A stretch of DNA of 64,000 nucleotides from an uncultured virus (IMG/VR IMGVR_UViG_2061766007_000727) (IMGVR_UViG_2061766007_000727), one strand, 5' to 3'; positions 10,869 through 53,342 are shown, counted from the stretch's first letter. Numbers and translations are program-made. Notes: generated by a model not told the origin, from the letters alone.

Positions 10869-13395
10869 GTTGTACGATATTATTGACAATAATGACCACA
10901 AGTCAATCTCAATAAACGTTGAGACAACAGGGTTCGACTACATCAAGGATTATATAGTTGGTGTGTCGGTGGGTATAGAGCGTGTCGATAATTCAATTGA
11001 TTCGTATTACATACCATTACGGCACAAGAACTATGGTGCGAACATAGACACCGAGCCTGTGTTCACGTTCATCCAACACCTTATAGACAATGAGCGGATT
11101 CTATTCTTCAATAGAGTGTTCTCGTTTTTCTTTCTTGAGAAGGAAGGAATCAAGTGCGCACTAAACAAGACGCACGATGTGCAGATAATGCTTTATCTTG
11201 CAACAAGCAAGTCGTGTCCTTCAAGGAATGAGTATGCGAGGTTGTTCATACCAAACGTGGATATATTCGACTTGGATTTCAGCAAGCAGAATTTCAGTGA
11301 GTACAACCCAGAGAACGCATATATCTTCTCCGCACAGAAGGCGGTTATAAACATACTGCTTGGTGCGTATGTGTGGGAGAAATACGATATGATACACAAC
11401 ATCTATCTGTTGGACAACAAGTCAAACGAGGTGGTGCGTTGGTTCTGTAAGAACTCCGAGATGTGCGTGGATTACGATTACATCAAAGCGCAGTATGAGA
11501 AAGTGAACTTTGAGATTGAGAACATCAAGTCGCAGATAAAGAGCATAGCAGGGTTTGAGATTGATATTGACAACCAAGCAACGTTATTACAATCGTTGAA
11601 GGATTTGAGAATAGTTGGTAGTGGTGTCGAGAGTATGAACAATGTCTATCTTGATGACTACAACCATCCGATAGCAAGGTTGTTGTATCTGTACGAGAAG
11701 AAACACAAGCCGTACAAGGCATCGCTTGAGAACATATTAGCCAACGATGGTAGGAACTTGAAACTGCGTTATTCAACCGTTACCGCATCCACAGGCAGAC
11801 TTACAAGCGGACACTCAAAGGACAACTCGTACTTCTCTGATTTCAACGCACAGAACGTTGGAAAGACGGAGATGGTACGATACGTTCACAAAGGTGGTGA
11901 CATCGGATTCTACGTTGACGATAACGCAGATGGTGCAGTTAAGGAAATCAAATGCAAAGGTGGATTGAGAGACGCTTTCGTGTGTCCGAGCGATGAATAC
12001 GTGTGGGTTTCGTGCGACTATAGCGGAGAGGAGATGTGTCTGCTTGCCAATTTCAGCAAGGAAATGAACTTGATTGAGCCGATAAAACGTGGAGAGGATA
12101 TTCATACATTCGTAGCGAGGAACATATTCGGAATAGAGAGCAGTGAGTGCAGAAGCAAGACAAAGGCACTCAATTTCAGTGTGGTGTACGGAATGGGTAA
12201 TTACAGATTAGCAAAGAATCTTGGCATTTCGATTGAAGAATGTGAGAAACTGCTGAAAAAATACTATGGGTTATTACGTGGTGTGGCTATTTGGAAAGAT
12301 AAGATGATAGCCAAAGCGAGAAGGCAAGGTTACGTAAGCACGTTGTTCGGAAGACCGAGAATGTTGTTCAACGAGTACCAAAGCACCAACAGAGCAGACC
12401 ACAACGCTGCCGACAGAGCAGCCTGCAACTCACCCATTCAAGGTTGCACACCACTGAACGGACATCTTGAGACGAAGGATTCCGCAGTGCGTATTAAGAA
12501 CTACGTGGGAAGGAGTGTTGTAGGTGCAGACGGAAGGGGGTTGATACTCACCCATCGTGGGGAGAGCCAACCATTGTTCTGTCTGTTCAAGAGCGGTGAC
12601 TATTTGATTTGTGACAACAACCACCAACTTGTTTACAACAATATGAAAAAACCGAAGGTAACAAGTGTGAGAAACGGATACCGAGACGGAAGGGTTATGT
12701 TGTCGAAGTTACAAAGAAAATCGTTCAAGTTGAGCAGATTCTTCTTCAAGAGTTTTTCCGACTGCAAGGCGTTGTTCACTATGTCGTGCAAGCGAGACGA
12801 TGTGATAAAGAAAACAAACAAGGACATCAATAGTGCGTTATTGAGACTTGCGTTGAGTTGGAAGTGGTTCAAGGCTGACTACGATGCCGCAATCAGTATG
12901 AGAAGTGTTGCGAGTGTGTTCGGCTACAACGTGGTGTATAGTGCGAGAAAGGACAAGTTCAAGGTTAGATTTTGGAGAAGAAGGAAAAGCGGAATAAAGA
13001 GTATATGGTGGTGTTTTGAGGATGACAGACGAGTTCCTGTGGGGACTTGTACCGCAACGAAGGGATACCAGATGTACGTCAATCAAGGCTTTTGGAACAA
13101 GAACACAGGTGCGGACATAATGAGGATTGTTCTATGCAAGTTTAAGGATTTGTTTGATAAAGATACAGAGTGGGCGGAGAATGTGAAGTTCGTTTGTTCC
13201 GTTTACGATGAGTGCAACTTCTACGTTAAGAAAAGTTACTTGGAGAAGGGGTGCAGGAAGATTTACGAGACTATGTATTTTACTCACCCTTTATGTATAT
13301 TACCCATTAAAGGTGTTGTATCAATAGGAATAGATTGGGGTCATTTAATGGAAGTTGATATTGACAAAATTAAAGATAATAAAGTGTTATTTTAA
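10813..13395 (+). CDS. polA: Family A DNA polymerase with an intein; last 42 codons supplied by the inserted element
   Basis: TGRLTS, motif A CDYSGEE, motif B KALNFSVVYG, NSPIQG/TGADI, motif C VYDE. Confidence 0.95.
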   Translation: MIQTTTNGHNLILIQNKDELYDIIDNNDHKSISINVETTGFDYIKDYIVGVSVGIERVDNSIDSYYIPLRHKNYGANIDTEPVFTFIQHLIDNERILFFNRVFSFFFLEKEGIKCALNKTHDVQIMLYLATSKSCPSRNEYARLFIPNVDIFDLDFSKQNFSEYNPENAYIFSAQKAVINILLGAYVWEKYDMIHNIYLLDNKSNEVVRWFCKNSEMCVDYDYIKAQYEKVNFEIENIKSQIKSIAGFEIDIDNQATLLQSLKDLRIVGSGVESMNNVYLDDYNHPIARLLYLYEKKHKPYKASLENILANDGRNLKLRYSTVTASTGRLTSGHSKDNSYFSDFNAQNVGKTEMVRYVHKGGDIGFYVDDNADGAVKEIKCKGGLRDAFVCPSDEYVWVSCDYSGEEMCLLANFSKEMNLIEPIKRGEDIHTFVARNIFGIESSECRSKTKALNFSVVYGMGNYRLAKNLGISIEECEKLLKKYYGLLRGVAIWKDKMIAKARRQGYVSTLFGRPRMLFNEYQSTNRADHNAADRAACNSPIQGCTPLNGHLETKDSAVRIKNYVGRSVVGADGRGLILTHRGESQPLFCLFKSGDYLICDNNHQLVYNNMKKPKVTSVRNGYRDGRVMLSKLQRKSFKLSRFFFKSFSDCKALFTMSCKRDDVIKKTNKDINSALLRLALSWKWFKADYDAAISMRSVASVFGYNVVYSARKDKFKVRFWRRRKSGIKSIWWCFEDDRRVPVGTCTATKGYQMYVNQGFWNKNTGADIMRIVLCKFKDLFDKDTEWAENVKFVCSVYDECNFYVKKSYLEKGCRKIYETMYFTHPLCILPIKGVVSIGIDWGHLMEVDIDKIKDNKVLF
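12445..13104 (+). mobile_element. Intein (220 aa) in PolA
   Basis: Interrupts NSPIQG|TGADIMR; begins with Cys, block B CDNNH, ends WNKN followed by Thr. Confidence 0.85.
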
Positions 13396-14682
13396 TTTTT
13401 TATGTTATATTTTGTTTTTAACATAAATTTTGTATTTTTGTAGTGTAATTATCATTTACACTAATGATACAAATGTTTACATACCAATATAAGTTAAAAC
13501 CCACAAAGGAACAAAGGATTCTTTTGGCGAAACATTGTGGGGCAATGAGATTTGTTTGGAATAGGTATTTGAATCAAAGAGTGGAAATATATAGAAATGA
13601 AAATCGTTGTATAGGTTATTATGACCAATGCAAGGATATTACATTGTTAAAGAAACAAGATGAGTTTAAGTGGTTAAGAGAAATAAATGCACAATCCATT
13701 CAACAATGTCTTGACCAACTTGATACTGCGTTTGGTAGATTTTTTAAAAAAAAAGCCAAGTTTCCTAATTTTAAAAATAAATCAAATGGTGGTAGTTTTG
13801 TTATACCACAATATGTTTTTTTAAAAGATAATAAAATATATTTCCCTAAATTTAAAGAGGGAATCAAACTTATATTACATAGAAAGTTTGAATGTGAGAA
13901 AATATGCTATTGTACCATAAAGAAAAGAAACGATGATTACTATGCTTTTATTTCAGTACAAAAAGACATACAACCATTAGAAAAGACAGGTGCGATAGTT
14001 GGTATTGATTTGGGTATAAAAGATATTGTTATTACATCAGATGGAAAAAAGTTTGATAATCCGAAAGCGTTGGAACGATATGAGAAACGTTTGCAACATT
14101 ATCAAAAGAAATTATCCAGACAAATAAAGGGTAGTAAGGGTAGAGAAAAAACACGTAAACATCTTTCAAGGGTACACGAAAAAATATCCAATCTTCGTAA
14201 TAATGCTATTCATAACATTACAACTCAACTTGTACGAGAAAATGATGTTATTGTAATGGAAGATTTGAACGTTGAAGGAATGTTAAAAAATCACCATTTG
14301 GCAAAGGCTATTGTTAATGTATCATTTTCAAGAATAAAAAGACAACTTGAATATAAATGTCAATGGTATGGTAAAAAACTGATAAAGATAGACAGATGGT
14401 TTCCAAGCAGCAAGACTTGTAATTGTTGTGGTTACATCAACAACCACCTTACACTCAATGATAGAGTGTGGGAGTGTCCGCAATGTGCGTCTAAAATAGA
14501 CAGAGATATAAATGCCGCAAAGAACATCAGAGATGAAGGTTTGCGGCAGGAAAATAGGGTGGCAACCACCCAAATTAACGATGATGGAGTGGAAGGTAAG
14601 ACTACACCGAACTACGAGTTAGTTGAAGGTAATGTAGCCACAATGAAGTCATAAATCTTTTTTTTACAAAAAGATAGTTGAT
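13267..14682 (+). mobile_element. IS200/IS605-family tnpB-only element inserted in the polA 3' end, carrying a replacement polA C-terminus
   Basis: Left junction after ATTTAC; right end GAAGTC...ATCTTTTT-TTAC-AAAAAGAT-AGTTGAT; the original polA tail resumes at 14683. Confidence 0.85.
13464..14654 (+). CDS. tnpB: TnpB RNA-guided endonuclease
   Basis: N-terminal HTH region, RuvC GIDLG / MEDL / DRDINAA, CNCCG..CPQC zinc ribbon. Confidence 0.95.
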   Translation: MIQMFTYQYKLKPTKEQRILLAKHCGAMRFVWNRYLNQRVEIYRNENRCIGYYDQCKDITLLKKQDEFKWLREINAQSIQQCLDQLDTAFGRFFKKKAKFPNFKNKSNGGSFVIPQYVFLKDNKIYFPKFKEGIKLILHRKFECEKICYCTIKKRNDDYYAFISVQKDIQPLEKTGAIVGIDLGIKDIVITSDGKKFDNPKALERYEKRLQHYQKKLSRQIKGSKGREKTRKHLSRVHEKISNLRNNAIHNITTQLVRENDVIVMEDLNVEGMLKNHHLAKAIVNVSFSRIKRQLEYKCQWYGKKLIKIDRWFPSSKTCNCCGYINNHLTLNDRVWECPQCASKIDRDINAAKNIRDEGLRQENRVATTQINDDGVEGKTTPNYELVEGNVATMKS

Positions 14683-14702
14683 GATACGATGTATTTCCAA
14701 CA
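14557..14702 (+). ncRNA. Predicted omegaRNA scaffold plus guide (guide from 14683); boundaries approximate
   Basis: GGGTGG-CAA-CCACCC hairpin overlapping the tnpB 3' end and a right-end hairpin, the usual TnpB omegaRNA layout. Confidence 0.65.
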
Positions 14703-14811
14703 TCCGCTTTGTGTGCTGCCGATAGTGGGTAAGTTGTCAGTGGGTACGGATTGGGGACATCTGATGGATATTGAGTTGAATCAAATAGAGAATAACACAA
14801 TTAAAATTTAG
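14683..14811 (+). pseudogene. polA: Displaced original polA 3' end (42 codons plus TAG)
   Basis: Translates DTMYFQHPLCVLPIVGKLSVGTDWGHLMDIELNQIENNTIKI*; 22/42 identical to, and the same length as, the resident tail at 13267-13395. Confidence 0.9.
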
Positions 14812-14816
14812 GACTT

Positions 14817-32684: not shown

Positions 32685-32731
32685 CGTTGTTATATATTAG
32701 AATATGTTTAACAATAAAAATTGATTTTGGT

Positions 32732-40341: not shown

Positions 40342-40497
40342 TATCAAACTATATTCCAAAGCACCACAAAACCCTAAAAAGTTTCTGTGGTGTTTTTTTT
40401 ATCAATCCGTTTTATATAACAAAATTTCTATTACTTTTGTTAAACTCAAATCCAACTTATATATTATAGTTAGATTCGATATTTAAAACATTTTAAA

Positions 40498-43523: not shown

Positions 43524-43648
43524 GACTTGAAAGAAAAGCCATTTTTTAAATTAAAGTTAGTTAAGGGCAGAACCCCAATCCGTAACAAGGTTGGGGTTTT
43601 GTTTTTCTATAACAACTTATATATTATAAGTAAAGAGTTGAAACATAT

Positions 43649-48257: not shown

Positions 48258-48316
48258 GGGTTTTGAAATTGAAATATATATTATAGTAGTTTGTTTAATA
48301 TTAAACTTTAAGTACA

Positions 48317-49063
48317 ATGGATTTAAAAAAGTTGATGGAAGTTGGTATGGTTGCCAACAAGCGTGTGACGGATTCAGAAATCCGCAAACAACGCATTCTT
48401 GATGCCAAAGCAAAAATGGCAGAGAAACGTGGTGAGGAAGCCACAGGTGAGAAACTTAACCGCATTGGTGATTCGGCTCGTCCGACACGTACCCCAATGC
48501 GAGGTGTAGCACAGAGACGTGCAGTTGCTACACAGGCACGTATGCAAGATAGCCGTGCCAAATCGTATTTCGCACTTCGCAAACGCATCAAAGACGAACT
48601 TGAGGAAACCGAATCGACAGAAGATGCAATCGAGGCAGCAGTAAACGTAATGCAAGAGGAAGCAGTTGAGAATCCTGCTGATGTTATTGCCGCAGTTGTA
48701 GAAGTGTTGGGTGATGTAATGGACACATTACCAGAGGGTGATGGCGAAGCCGCAGAAGAAGGCGGTGCTGATGACTACGCTGACGAATATGAAGACGAGG
48801 TATCGGATTCACTCCGCAAACGTCAAGTTATCCGCAGAAACACAGTAGCAGATGCTCGCAAGCGTGTAGCACTCCGCAAACGTTCAGCAGTTGCTGATTC
48901 TCGCAAACGTGCAGAATTGCGCAAACGAGTATTGGATGCTCTTGCTCGCAAACGTGCCGCACAGAAACGTATCCGTGATGCACGTGAACGCAGAGCAGGT
49001 GTAACTCGCAGAGCAGTCGCTGACAACCAAGTTGCAGGCAAACGCCTTGTAAGACGTGGTTAA
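48317..49063 (+). CDS. Arg-rich/acidic scaffold- or core-like protein with MDLKKLM leader
   Basis: About 11 hydrophobic-x-D motifs; late promoter; strong terminator. Confidence 0.65.
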   Translation: MDLKKLMEVGMVANKRVTDSEIRKQRILDAKAKMAEKRGEEATGEKLNRIGDSARPTRTPMRGVAQRRAVATQARMQDSRAKSYFALRKRIKDELEETESTEDAIEAAVNVMQEEAVENPADVIAAVVEVLGDVMDTLPEGDGEAAEEGGADDYADEYEDEVSDSLRKRQVIRRNTVADARKRVALRKRSAVADSRKRAELRKRVLDALARKRAAQKRIRDARERRAGVTRRAVADNQVAGKRLVRRG

Positions 49064-49086
49064 TACGTTGGGAAAACGTTGAAGAA

Positions 49087-49122
49087 AGGGAGTTGGTTCG
49101 GTTTGAATCAACTCTTTTTTTT
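49087..49122 (+). terminator. Intrinsic terminator
   Basis: AGGGAGTTGGTTC/GAATCAACTCTTT plus T-run. Confidence 0.75.
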
Positions 49123-49130
49123 GTACTTAT

Positions 49131-50400
49131 ATATTCAAAAAGTTATAAAAATGTTTGTGGCTTACAAAAAATATTATACCTTTGTAAAAAAGGTAAGGTG
49201 TGAAAGTTATACACAGAACATATAAGTATAGATTATATCCAAATAAAGAACAAGAACAGATTCTTGCAAAACATTTTGGTTCAGTCCGTTTTGTATATAA
49301 TTATTTCCTTGCGGAACGAAAACAACAGTATGATGAAAAGAGTAAGAGTGATAATTATTATGCTCAAGCAAAAACTCTTACAAAACTTAAAAAACAAGAA
49401 GAATATTCTTGGTTGAATGAAATTAACTCGCAAACCTTGCAGTATTCTCTGCGTTGTTTGGAAACCGCATATACCAATTTCTTTAGTGGTAGAGCGAGAT
49501 TTCCTAAATTTAAGGCAAAAAAACAAGGTGGTAGTTTTAATGTACCACAATATTGTACCATTGAAAATGGTAGGATATATATTCCGAAATTCAAACAAGG
49601 AATAAAAATCAAAGAACATAGAACATTTCAAGGGAATGTTAAAAATATGACAATTTCTGTTACACCAAGCGGAAAATACTATGTTTCCATATTATCCGAA
49701 GTTGAATATGAGCCTATGCAGAAAACCAATGCAAAGGTTGGTATAGATTTAGGTATAAAGGATTTTATAGTGACAAGTGATGGTGTAAGGTGTTCTGGTA
49801 ACAAATTCATTAAACGTTATGAAAAGAAACTTGCGAAAACCCAAAAAGTTTTGTCAAGAAAGACTAAAGGTTCTAATGGGTGGAACAAAATGCGTTTGAG
49901 AGTTGCGAGAATACAGGAGAAAATACATAATTGCCGTATGGACAAATTGCATAAGATTTCCACCGATTTGGTAAGGAAATATGATGTAATTTGTTGTGAG
50001 GATTTGAATGTGAAGGGTGTGCAGAAAAACCATAGACTTGCCCAAAGCATAGCAGATGCAAGTTGGGGAACATTCTTGAATTTACTTTCGTACAAATGTG
50101 ATAGAGAAGATAAACAACTTATAAAAGTTAGTCGTTTCTATCCATCATCAAAAACTTGTCATCACTGTGGTTATGTAAAAGAAGATTTGTCATTGGATGA
50201 TAGAATTTGGGAATGTCCTAAATGCGGAAGTTTGATTGACCGTGACTTGAACGCTTCAATCAATATTCTAAACGAAGGCATTAAAAACATATCGGCAGGG
50301 ACTGTCGATTACACAGGTGGAGATGATGTAAGACTTGCTTGCAAGCAATTGTCTGTGAAGCCTGAAGCCCATAAATTTTTAGTTTGTGGGTAGTTTTCAT
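49131..50400 (+). mobile_element. IS200/IS605-family tnpB-only element inserted in a late promoter
   Basis: Right end GAAGCCCATAAA...TTTGTGGGTAGTTTTCAT; removing 49131-50400 restores ACTTATATATTATATT; junctions share ATATATT, so ends are uncertain by a few nt. Confidence 0.75.
49200..50393 (+). CDS. tnpB: TnpB RNA-guided endonuclease
   Basis: GIDLG, CEDL, CHHCG..CPKC, DRDLNAS. Confidence 0.95.
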   Translation: MKVIHRTYKYRLYPNKEQEQILAKHFGSVRFVYNYFLAERKQQYDEKSKSDNYYAQAKTLTKLKKQEEYSWLNEINSQTLQYSLRCLETAYTNFFSGRARFPKFKAKKQGGSFNVPQYCTIENGRIYIPKFKQGIKIKEHRTFQGNVKNMTISVTPSGKYYVSILSEVEYEPMQKTNAKVGIDLGIKDFIVTSDGVRCSGNKFIKRYEKKLAKTQKVLSRKTKGSNGWNKMRLRVARIQEKIHNCRMDKLHKISTDLVRKYDVICCEDLNVKGVQKNHRLAQSIADASWGTFLNLLSYKCDREDKQLIKVSRFYPSSKTCHHCGYVKEDLSLDDRIWECPKCGSLIDRDLNASINILNEGIKNISAGTVDYTGGDDVRLACKQLSVKPEAHKFLVCG

Positions 50401-50420
50401 ATATTATATTAAAACATAAT
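50291..50420 (+). ncRNA. Predicted omegaRNA plus guide (guide from about 50401); boundaries approximate
   Basis: ATCGGCAG/CTGTCGAT hairpin and right-end hairpin in the tnpB 3' end. Confidence 0.6.
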
Positions 50421-50423
50421 ATT

Positions 50424-50834
50424 ATGGCAGACAGAATGTATCGCAAAGTGCAACGAGTTGATGACGGACTATTTGATGGCATCAAGAAACTCTTTGGTGG
50501 AAAGAAGAAACGCAGAAAGAACTCCGACCCAGAACACGATGTGGGTGACAAGATAAAGTTTGAGCGCAGAAACGGACAGAACGCAAACGGAGTTATTGAG
50601 AATATCTATTACAACGAGGAGGATGGTGGAATAGACTATGGTGTGCGTTCAACAAGGTCAACAGACAATATTGTTGTGCCAGAGGAAAACATTGTGGATT
50701 CACACGCAGTCAGTGTTTTGGTTAGAAACTTTCCGAATGCGAGTGCGAACAGAATTGCGAGTTTTGTTGCTGATAGTTGGAATCCGAGATTATCGGATAA
50801 GGTTAATGTTAGAAGGTTTGAAAAAGGATTATAG
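50424..50834 (+). CDS. Late protein with an SH3-like barrel segment
   Basis: VGDKIKF..GVIENI..YGV..VPEENI; RVDD, IVDS and VADS motifs. Confidence 0.65.
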   Translation: MADRMYRKVQRVDDGLFDGIKKLFGGKKKRRKNSDPEHDVGDKIKFERRNGQNANGVIENIYYNEEDGGIDYGVRSTRSTDNIVVPEENIVDSHAVSVLVRNFPNASANRIASFVADSWNPRLSDKVNVRRFEKGL

Positions 50835-50941
50835 TTTTTTTCTTGATAAATCGGTTTGTTGAAAGGCGGAGATTCCTAACAAGGGGTTTCCGCTTTTCTT
50901 TTATATATTATAAGTAGAGAAATATTTAAAAGGATATAGTT

Positions 50942-51316
50942 ATGAATTTTGATGGGCAGTTTATAGCAGAGATGGCAGGTGTACTGCTTGGTGGTGGTGG
51001 AATAGGCATATTCCTTGACCGCAAGGCAAAGAAGAAAGCACTTGAGATAGAGAACAAGAAGAACGAATCCGAAGTCAAAAAGGATGAGGAATCGTATGTT
51101 ATGACCAATATTAAAGAGAGTTACGATAAACTTGAGCAAGAATATGACGAGGTTGTTGAAAAGCATAAAGCGTCTATTGCCAAAGGAAAGGCACTTTTTG
51201 AGGAAACGCTTGAACTCAAGAAGGTTATTGCCGAGAAGGACATTGAGATAGGTAAACTGAAATCAAAGAACAAGGAGTTGTCAACAAGACTTAAAAATAA
51301 GGGGAATGGAAAATAG
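50942..51316 (+). CDS. Membrane-anchored coiled-coil protein
   Basis: GVLLGGGGIG hydrophobic segment plus coiled coil. Confidence 0.65.
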   Translation: MNFDGQFIAEMAGVLLGGGGIGIFLDRKAKKKALEIENKKNESEVKKDEESYVMTNIKESYDKLEQEYDEVVEKHKASIAKGKALFEETLELKKVIAEKDIEIGKLKSKNKELSTRLKNKGNGK

Positions 51317-51491
51317 AGCCGTACATAATGTGATATTAACACTGCTTTTGATATTGAGTATTCTGTTCTTCATAATAGACGGATATGGTGTTTATGGTGT
51401 TATGACGATGTTCGGTGCGTTTCTCTACCTTCTTTGGAATGATAAAGGTGATGATAATGATGATGACTATTATAAGTTTAATTTAAGATAA
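51306..51491 (+). CDS. Small 2-TM membrane protein
   Basis: Two hydrophobic helices. Confidence 0.65.
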   Translation: MENRAVHNVILTLLLILSILFFIIDGYGVYGVMTMFGAFLYLLWNDKGDDNDDDYYKFNLR

Positions 51492-51498
51492 ACAAGAG

Positions 51499-51783
51499 AT
51501 GAATACGTTGAGTTTCCACGATTTACCAAGCGGTAAGTTTGAATCAGATGTTTTCCAATTCGGAGACGATGCCGCATTGGAACTGAATTTTGAGAGCGTA
51601 CCTAAATTTGTAGGTGTAGATATAGCGATATGCCAATCACTCTCGCAGGAGAATTGGCAGACTTGTTATTATGAGCAGCAGTATCATTATAACACGTTCT
51701 GCAAGTCGGTGCAGGGTGCTTCAAGGCAGGCATATTTCAAGATTATAACAACATTCCAACCTGTAAGCGCATATTACATCTAA
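51499..51783 (+). CDS. Hypothetical protein
   Basis: Clean ORF in operon. Confidence 0.65.
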   Translation: MNTLSFHDLPSGKFESDVFQFGDDAALELNFESVPKFVGVDIAICQSLSQENWQTCYYEQQYHYNTFCKSVQGASRQAYFKIITTFQPVSAYYI

Positions 51784-51787
51784 TATT

Positions 51788-51985
51788 ATGATTATTAATA
51801 GGGATAACATAGCGATTATTTTAGGCATTGCGTTACTTGATGTCATCCATATCAACAATATCGAACTTGGTGAGATAGGTGTTAGTGGCATCAATGGTGA
51901 ACTTGCGCCTATTGAGCGTGATTATCTGTGTGATGAGGATTGGAATCACTTGCTTGATGAGAATGGTAACAATATAACAGAATGA
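51788..51985 (+). CDS. Hypothetical protein
   Basis: Clean ORF; LLDENGNNI motif. Confidence 0.6.
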   Translation: MIINRDNIAIILGIALLDVIHINNIELGEIGVSGINGELAPIERDYLCDEDWNHLLDENGNNITE

Positions 51986-51989
51986 TATT

Positions 51990-53342
51990 ATGGCAGACAA
52001 GAGAGTTGTAGATTATAGCATTGAGGATTATAATAAGGATGACACCTATTTGGTGGGTGTCAAGAACGCTATGGTAAAGCGTATCCGTATGGGTAATGTT
52101 ACGAGCGTGAGTGCTAATCCTTCTACCACACCGACTGAATCGCTTAACTCCATTGAGATAGGTGGTGTAAGTTATAGTGTGGAAGGTGGTGGTGGAAACG
52201 TTGATGTTGACACCGAGCGTGGTTGGTTGCTTGTNNNNNNNNNNCGCTCGTAAACGTGCCGCACAGAAACGTATCCGTGACGCACGTGAACGCAAAGCAG
52301 GTGTAACTCGCAGAGCAGTCGCTGACAACCAAGTTGCAAGCAAACGCCTTGTAAGACGTGGTTAATACGTTGGGAAAACGTTGAAGAAANNNNNNNNNNG
52401 AGTTATAGTGTTGAAGGTGGTGGTGGTGGAAACGTTGATGTTGACACCGAGCGTGGTTGGTTGCTTGTTTCGGAGGGCGGACACAATTATTTCGCACCGC
52501 TTACCGAACTTGTAGCACCGAACAAGCCTACCATTTCGACCACTACATATTATGTGGTTACAGGTAACGCAAGTGTTTCCGTTTCTTCATCCACAAGTGG
52601 TGCGAGTGTGTCTTACAAGGTTGATGACGGAAGTTGGACTAATGGTTCGACCATCACGCTTGCGAGTGGATTCCAGAACAACACAAGCAACACCGACAAG
52701 CAGTACACTATTCAAGTGAAGGCTACAAAGAACGGAGTGGAGAGTGGTGTCAACTCGTACACTATCACAATCAAGCCGAAAGTTGCGGCAGGCAGTCTGT
52801 CTGTAACTCGCACACCTAACAATAATGATTGGGCAACGCAAGCGACAATCACATTCACCGCTTCGTCTATGAGTGGCACAACAAGCAGATATTCAACCGA
52901 TGGTGGTACAACGTGGACTGCTTTCACAGGTACGCACACCGAGACAATCACAGAATCTGCTGCCGCTAACAAGTTTAGGGTTAAGATTGACAGTGTTGCC
53001 AACTACCAAGACGCATCAGTGGCACAGAGCAGTGCAATCACGCTCAACAAGAAGAAGTTCTACTATGGTCGTGGTGGTGCTACACTTGCCAATGAAGCCG
53101 CAATCAAGGCTCTTGTAGGTGGTGGCAGTGAGGAGAAAGACACAATGGCAGGTAGTTACGATATTACTTCTACCGAGTTGGGACAATTCACTTGGTTCTG
53201 CGGTACGGGAACGCTCACATCTGTTTCTTCAAGCGGATTCGGTGTGCCTATGAACGCAGTGGTTGTGGTAGATGGTTATAACTGCTATCGTTCGGCATCG
53301 CACGTTATGAATTTGGATACAGACACATTTGTAGTTTCGTAA
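51990..53342 (+). CDS. Fibre/adhesin protein broken by an assembly gap (51990 start probably joins the 52461 ORF)
   Basis: VDVDTERGWLL appears on both sides of the gapped insert; C-terminal half paralogous to 53358. Confidence 0.6.

Follow-up and report, generated by a model that had tools for sequence, protein, structure and literature searches.

A solo tnpB gene with a predicted promoter-matching guide, inserted in a repeated promoter-like motif of an uncultured phage

Free-standing homing endonuclease genes located between the phage genes of T4-like phages are selfish intergenic nuclease genes. The established role of TnpB is to cut the unoccupied site, with the result that the element is retained or copied (bioRxiv 10.1101/2023.11.30.569447). 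For the TldR relatives of TnpB, the same source describes a seed of about 6 nt in ChIP-seq and natural guides of 9-11 nt directed to promoters (bioRxiv 10.1101/2023.11.30.569447). Dra2 TnpB binds targets mismatched beyond approximately position 8 and passes through an intermediate of about 7 bp, while cleavage needs about 12-16 bp (PMC12803034). An active ISDge10 TnpB with the TAM TTAT and a 10-nt guide was described to engage DNA without cutting it (PMC13507860). A literature search on tnpB in phage promoters returned TldR and phage Cas12r, and no nuclease-active TnpB with a seed matching a phage promoter repeat.

The DNA analysed in this study, hereafter the window, is the whole stretch of 64,000 nucleotides from an uncultured virus (IMG/VR IMGVR_UViG_2061766007_000727). 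All of its long ORFs are located on the + strand, including genes for phage replication, lysis, tail-fibre and portal proteins. According to their records, the public runs that contain the stretch are metagenomes of bovine or other gut origin. No syntenic relative of the window was found in the phage GenBank collection searched in distant mode; the sole match, to Parabacteroides phage PF672P2, was weak (65.7%) and covered tnpB only. The window carries two tnpB genes, the first at 13464-14654 and the second, 48% identical to it, in the locus that is the subject of this work and comprises the following features:

48317..49063, + strand: upstream gene of 248 aa with basic repeats, in a scaffold-like position behind the portal gene; kept in the related contigs L035 and L037
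49090..49122, + strand: hairpin GAGTTGGTTC...GAATCAACTC with a T-run, read from the sequence as a terminator-like end of the upstream gene; kept in L037
49126..49137, + strand: left promoter-like copy CTTATATATTCA, identical at 49127-49135 to bases 1-9 of the 12-base motif
49131..49157, + strand: 27 nt to the right of the predicted left boundary; absent from L037 and present in the tnpB-less contigs X4 and X5
49158..49199, + strand: tnpB leader with a small hairpin (TTACAAA...TTTGTAA), resembling the tnpA-tnpB spacer of relatives
49200..50393, + strand: tnpB, 397 aa, GTG start, RuvC motifs and zinc ribbon intact
50211..50400, + strand: putative omegaRNA scaffold, which overlaps tnpB at the 3' end of the gene; a model built from relatives only matches its final 118 nt (50281-50398)
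50368..50390, + strand: right-end subterminal hairpin CCCATAAA / TTTGTGGG, scoring as terminator-like with the TTTT behind it
50397..50408, + strand: regenerated promoter-like motif TCATATATTATA, 11 of 12 motif bases
50401..50420, + strand: predicted guide and target-matching DNA, consisting of the promoter core ATATTATA followed by the next gene's 5' leader, with 50399 as a possible alternative start
50424..50834, + strand: downstream gene of 136 aa, located directly behind the motif in the empty allele L037

The terminator-like hairpin at 49090..49122 was not among the terminators listed by a pattern scan. Two repeats involving the genes on either side of the locus were observed further downstream. 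A stretch covering the leader and initial codons of the 136-aa gene (…ATATTATGGCAGACA, 50406-50433) recurs with 82% identity at 51972-51999, before a gene starting at 51990. The scaffold-like gene is represented a second time by its 3' end (48944-49087), of which a 97% copy at 52246-52389 is placed between two runs of 10 N, lies within a 50-nt exact direct repeat (52185-52234 and 52419-52468) and splits an apparent single gene at 51990-53342. The arrangement at 52170-52468 is most likely an artefact of scaffolding or assembly.

The motif TTATATATTATA occurs in ten exact copies in the window, on the + strand every time. Allowing at most one mismatch, 15 matches were counted against 0.84 +/- 0.90 expected, and none of 100 shuffles reached this number. 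Thirteen of the 14 sites on the + strand end 13-45 nt before the start of an ORF of at least 120 aa, the exception being a site at 32690, which is 434 nt away from such a start; many of the sites are situated immediately 3' of a stop codon or of a hairpin with T-run. Genes behind the motif include endolysin-like, virion, tail-fibre and portal-region genes, and also two unknown genes beside a helicase. In L037 the motif precedes both orthologous genes and is thus kept at orthologous sites. Being over-represented, strand-specific, gene-proximal and conserved at orthologous sites, it is most naturally read as a promoter, and the class of genes it would drive is plausibly "late". A scan of the window for the sigma-70 consensus yielded 11 sites against 9.0 expected, this consensus not being informative for this type of host. 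A different gene-proximal motif, ...TATCTTTGTGTG, was seen at 9330-9430 of L035, a more distant relative phage whose portal protein is 66% identical, at 2540-2650 of L001 and at 400-500 of L038; it resembles the Bacteroidota -7 box TAnnTTTG. A similar string, TACCTTTG, is present in the window at 49177-49184, just before tnpB.

The original prediction had placed the second tnpB inside one copy of the promoter motif, and the sequence comparisons bear this out. Both quoted flanks could be located, GTACTTAT|ATATTCAAAA on the left at 49123-49140 and TAGTTTTCAT|ATATTATATTAAAAC on the right at 50391-50415. Their junction, said to be identical to other promoter cores, gives a 14-mer that matches 40455-40468 and 43615-43628 exactly, and the right end does regenerate a near-consensus motif for the gene at 50424 (TCATATATTATA at 50397-50408, 11/12). 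An empty allele, proposed as a check, was found in L037, a metagenome contig of 2,543 nt whose 136-aa protein is 82% identical to that of the window. L037 aligns with 48393-49124 (87%) and with 50399-52211 (83%), only 5 nt lying between the two blocks, and a copy of the motif with one mismatch comes directly after its terminator hairpin and T-run. The TTAT of L037 is located 23 nt before the ATG of the 136-aa gene, the same distance as that of the predicted right junction in the window. Given this colinearity and spacing, the approximately 1,270 bp with tnpB are an insertion into a motif copy, and L037 is a true empty allele. A 9,938-nt contig from run X1 covers 48300-51400 with 2 differences and spans the insertion, so the junctions are not an artefact of assembly or scaffolding, although X1 is possibly the source sample itself and is then no independent support for them. 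Among other contigs considered, L001, L002 and L038 were rejected as empty sites, as they share just one domain of the 136-aa protein in a different context; L035 has neither tnpB nor the 136-aa gene at the locus and is too distant to define a junction.

The heptamer ATATATT is present at both junctions (49129-49135 and 50399-50405), and the boundaries are therefore ambiguous over 7 positions, with eight formally possible pairs, when judged from the window alone. The window reads CTTAT at the left junction and ...GGTAGTTTTCAT at the right one, the TTAT taken as TAM being situated at 49127-49130, inside the left motif copy 49126..49137. Only one of the eight pairs, the one originally predicted, combines a TTAT-type left flank with a right TTCAT that matches the TTCAC of relatives.

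Those relatives are twelve loci in large viral contigs from rumen and gut (L003-L014), whose TnpB proteins are about 75% identical to that of the window. The right end reads ...GGTAGTTCAC in 12/12 of them and is followed by DNA that is unrelated between loci; the window has 2 extra T and ends in CAT instead of CAC. As in IS200/IS605 elements, the right end in the window consists of a subterminal hairpin and then unrelated flanking DNA. Four full elements (L005, L008, L010 and L011) encode a divergent Y1 transposase (Y1_Tnp, E 1.3e-37) and have matching left- and right-end hairpins, and three others (L004, L006 and L009) carry internal tnpA deletions that retain the 140-nt left end. The left junction was placed in eight relatives, i.e. 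all except L003, L007, L012 and L014, and TTTAT ends the flank in 8/8, of which 7 are independent; L010 and L011 represent one insertion. The predicted TAM of about TTAT thus agrees with the junctions of the family, which support a TTAT-like TAM. The lineage is also found more than once in single large phage contigs, with L003 and L009 on the same contig, 3 kb apart and on opposite strands, and L013, L014 and L027 together on another, giving two or three copies per contig; the TnpB copy of L014 is truncated to residues 123-397.

The window copy differs from this pattern on its left side. It has CTTAT before the junction, compared with TTTAT in 8/8 relatives; the 7-nt repeat at both junctions and 27 nt shared with its sister phages make the original left junction less certain. 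No tnpA was found in the 64-kb window (tblastn with the L005 TnpA, best E 1.2), and no left-end hairpin in 49121-49200 (z -1.7, compared with -3.4 in L005). For lack of tnpA and of this hairpin, the window copy does not represent a complete IS200/IS605 transposon and is probably unable to transpose.

Two contigs from two other studies, X4 (48,439 nt) and X5 (7,406 nt), represent sister phages without tnpB. They follow the window as far as 49157 and rejoin it at 50399, 770 different letters standing in place of 49158-50398; the left flank differs from that of the window at 12-13 positions in 858 nt and the right flank at 36-44 in 695 nt. Because 49131-49157 is common to these tnpB-less sisters, the left junction as it now stands is possibly not the end of a transposon. 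It may be secondary, tnpB having for example replaced another cassette or been replaced by one, and the two alleles reflect either one insertion that was later remodelled inside or a swap between tnpB and the other cassette. In the case of a swap, 49126-49157 (a motif-like copy, 15 nt and then ATG) could be the promoter and start of the other cassette; the 27 nt at 49131-49157 could also be a decayed left-end hairpin or the start of another gene, with its ATG at 49151. The predicted left boundary therefore stands as the sole pair with TTAT on the left and TTCAT on the right, and is weakened by the missing left-end hairpin and by the presence of these 27 nt in phages without tnpB.

The tnpB allele was seen only in the possible source sample and the other allele in 2/2 other studies examined. 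Two stretches of the window used as exact patterns each gave 0 matches among viral, metagenome and genome contigs. In RNA run X15, contigs cover 48318-49084 and 50438-50826, which belong to the flanking genes only and not to tnpB; the X15 phage may be a variant without tnpB, so this coverage is uninformative on tnpB expression, as it is on transcription starts at the motif. The intergenic site is a polymorphic hot spot at which several alleles coexist in nature, and the retention or copying role of TnpB fits such coexisting alleles.

The coexistence of several alleles at this exact site would also suit a weapon between phages, in which the ribonucleoprotein (RNP) cuts the unoccupied promoter of close competitors in mixed infections, with no gain in copy number. 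The target logic is the same as that of homing, and the TAM and seed would lie in a motif that relatives must conserve; L037 indeed keeps the motif at orthologous sites. The readable empty allele of L037 nevertheless has seed mismatches: it deviates from the predicted guide at positions 3, 9, 15 and 16, and for this reason would probably escape cleavage. As a weapon of this kind is, in addition, indistinguishable from homing by sequence, we regard it as improbable.

The protein itself is well preserved. Pfam analysis assigned it to HTH_OrfB_IS605 / OrfB_IS605 / Cas12f1-like_TNB (PF12323, 7.6e-21; PF01385, 5.9e-22; PF07282, 4.6e-24), and it matches solved ISDra2 TnpB chains in the PDB over its full length (8h1j, 8bf8, 8exa; E 4e-82). 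The RuvC D/E/D residues, reported as intact in the original prediction, are indeed found in the motifs GIDLG (D183), CCEDL (E267) and DRD (347-349), each aligned to its counterpart in TnpB1 and the best solved chain; a CxxC...CxxC zinc ribbon and a full C-terminus are present as well. We take the three acidic residues to be equivalent to D191/E278/D361 of ISDra2. Compared with five relatives, tnpB shows dN/dS values of 0.11-0.16 at saturated dS, dN being higher and dS lower in the tail that overlaps the omegaRNA. Local alignment of the tnpB leader is suggestive for two of six relatives only, the score being reached by 1/200 shuffles for L005 and by 2/200 for L009, and not significant against L007, L013, L012 and L003.

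In the region 13255-14815, the first tnpB (13464-14654) is flanked by two diverged versions of the final ~41 codons of a family A DNA polymerase gene. One is in frame and ends at 13395, and the other, at 14680-14812, is a remnant whose translation gives a similar C-terminus. The omegaRNA model from the relatives of the second tnpB has a weak match at 14546-14682 (E 0.077), ending TAGTTGAT, which would put the predicted guide of the first tnpB on the start of the polymerase remnant copy; the functional polymerase copy differs from this guide at several positions. The arrangement suggests that this TnpB came into an essential gene along with a 3' end that replaced the original one.

For the second tnpB, the last ~190 nt of the gene together with the right end fold into a structure of eight helices and 49 pairs that is common to the window and 11 relatives, with 96.6% of the alignment cells paired. 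Thirteen compensatory pairs were counted against 4.1 +/- 1.4 in shuffles (0/500 reaching this number), and at most 2 were obtained when the partners were slid. Some of the compensation is specific to the window, which for example has CTTGC/GCAAG where most relatives have CCCTT/AAGGG, and this argues that the omegaRNA stayed under selection in the window lineage. A covariance model built from the relatives without the window recovered 50281-50398 (83.8 bits, E 4e-19), its last base aligned ungapped to 50398. Rfam searches of 49000-50600, with gathering thresholds as well as with E values up to 10, found no omegaRNA family.

These data bear on whether the locus is an inert passenger, that is, a stranded IS605-type fragment with a dead nuclease or guide, kept by its harmless position and the restored motif. 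Such a fragment would explain the absence of tnpA and of a left end, the GTG start where relatives have ATG, and the absence of the allele from the two other studies examined. It would also accommodate the terminator-like hairpin and T-run just before the guide, at which window transcripts might stop; the relatives have no T-run after their right-end hairpin. Against it stand a frame of 397 codons that is open in a genome of 40% GC, catalytic and zinc motifs that are all present, omegaRNA stems retained through compensatory changes in the window, and the dN/dS of 0.11-0.16, though the latter reflects mostly older history. We therefore hold an inert fragment to be rather unlikely.

The predicted guide start at 50401, or possibly at 50399, is supported by the element ends. 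The originally proposed start stands at this position or within 2 nt of it, since 12/12 relatives end ...GGTAGTTCAC and the window ...GGTAGTTTTCAT; it is less secure in that the covariance model ends at 50398. The difference matters for the other promoters of the phage. Ten of these had been claimed to read TTAT plus an 8-9-nt seed match, and exactly ten other sites with TTAT + ATATTATA were counted in the window (5343, 5895, 19593, 22175, 27972, 38418, 40457, 43617, 45402 and 50901). Eight of them match the predicted guide over 8 contiguous nt and two over 9 nt (19597 and 45406). None of the ten has a 12-nt match, and elsewhere in the window at most 10 contiguous guide bases are matched at any site, so self-cleavage is not expected.

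A nuclease-active RNP could in principle bind these ten promoters without cutting and thereby damp or time the phage's own, possibly late, genes. The ten sites exist, and the published seed-only binding without cleavage makes the mechanism plausible. No sequence sign of selection for the match was seen, however, and the match follows automatically from the insertion site. The matching bases are A/T only, while stronger activity at higher GC is reported (PMC13507860), and the full family TTTAT is present at just one of the ten sites. With a guide start at 50399, the sequence preceding the target in the other promoters would not be TTAT-like, and the seed-match argument would fail. The sister phages of two other studies manage without tnpB, and repressing ten of its own promoters is more likely a cost to the phage. 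Regulation of the phage's own promoters is for these reasons quite doubtful, and the more specific proposal that the RNP occupies about ten own promoters uncut and tunes transcription, as a natural intermediate between a selfish TnpB and a TldR-type factor, is very unlikely.

We favour, with a probability of about 60%, a solo IS605-type TnpB-omegaRNA of a rumen phage whose predicted promoter-matching guide results passively from TTAT-directed insertion and which acts at most as a homing or retention nuclease. The unit is located in a promoter-like motif between the terminator of the scaffold-like gene and the 136-aa gene, its lineage inserting 3' of TT(T)AT and the phage motif containing TTAT. 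Through insertion in the motif, its core becomes the first 8 bases of the predicted guide and is followed by the gene leader, and the right end (…TTCAT) rebuilds 11/12 motif bases for the downstream gene. The RNP, if made, would recognise the unoccupied allele of sibling phages in a co-infection by TTAT and ~16-20 nt and would cut it, tnpB then being copied in or retained by recombination. The 8-9-nt matches at the ten other motif copies would be a by-product, too short for cleavage and with no selected role. Points against this explanation are the lack of tnpA and of a left-end hairpin, the possibly secondary left junction, the terminator-like T-run ahead of the guide, the guide mismatches of L037 and the fact that the tnpB allele was seen in the possible source sample only.

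With TT(T)AT as the target of the family and a TTAT within the motif, the likeness of the guide to the promoter consensus is automatic. The window has 87 intergenic TTAT per strand, 10 of them in the motif, and a random intergenic insertion would land in the motif in ~6% of cases, before any selection for harmless sites; the motif hit is thus unsurprising. Landing in a motif copy is also unremarkable because only harmless insertions survive and the right end restores 11/12 motif bases.

The locus is a clean natural case in which the gene for an RNA-guided nuclease occupies a phage promoter motif, with empty and competing alleles in wild populations. Insertion-site preference alone can give TnpB a guide seed that matches a whole promoter family, and such a match between seed and promoter is the condition from which RNA-guided repressors like TldR would be expected to evolve. 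Should seed-only binding prove measurable, the TldR-type evolutionary step could be tested at this locus; otherwise the locus represents an ordinary selfish element of the homing type.

Among known systems, the ISDra2-type TnpB-omegaRNA shares with the window a full-length protein match, an omegaRNA that overlaps the 3' end of tnpB, a guide taken from the DNA just past the right end and a TAM that equals the left-junction motif. The window copy differs in having neither tnpA nor a left-end hairpin, in its TTAT-like TAM as opposed to the TTGAT of ISDra2, and in its location in a lytic-type phage genome, inside a repeated promoter-like motif. The L003-L014 elements share the TnpB lineage, the omegaRNA fold, the right-end hairpin and the TT(T)AT target; they differ in retaining a 140-nt left end with hairpin and, at four loci, the Y1 transposase, both of which the window copy lacks. 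Free-standing homing endonuclease genes of T4-like phages likewise occupy a polymorphic intergenic site and target the unoccupied allele, but their target is set by the protein and that of TnpB by RNA. ISDge10 TnpB resembles the window copy in its TTAT TAM and is an active enzyme that binds without cutting at 10-nt pairing, although with an engineered short guide and in human cells (PMC13507860). TldR is also a TnpB-family protein with a promoter-complementary guide, is in some cases prophage-encoded and represses by 9-11-nt pairing. TldR proteins have an inactivated RuvC, truncated C-termini and a host-gene target, whereas the window TnpB has an intact RuvC and C-terminus; the full-length target of its guide is its own insertion site, and its matches to promoters are partial.
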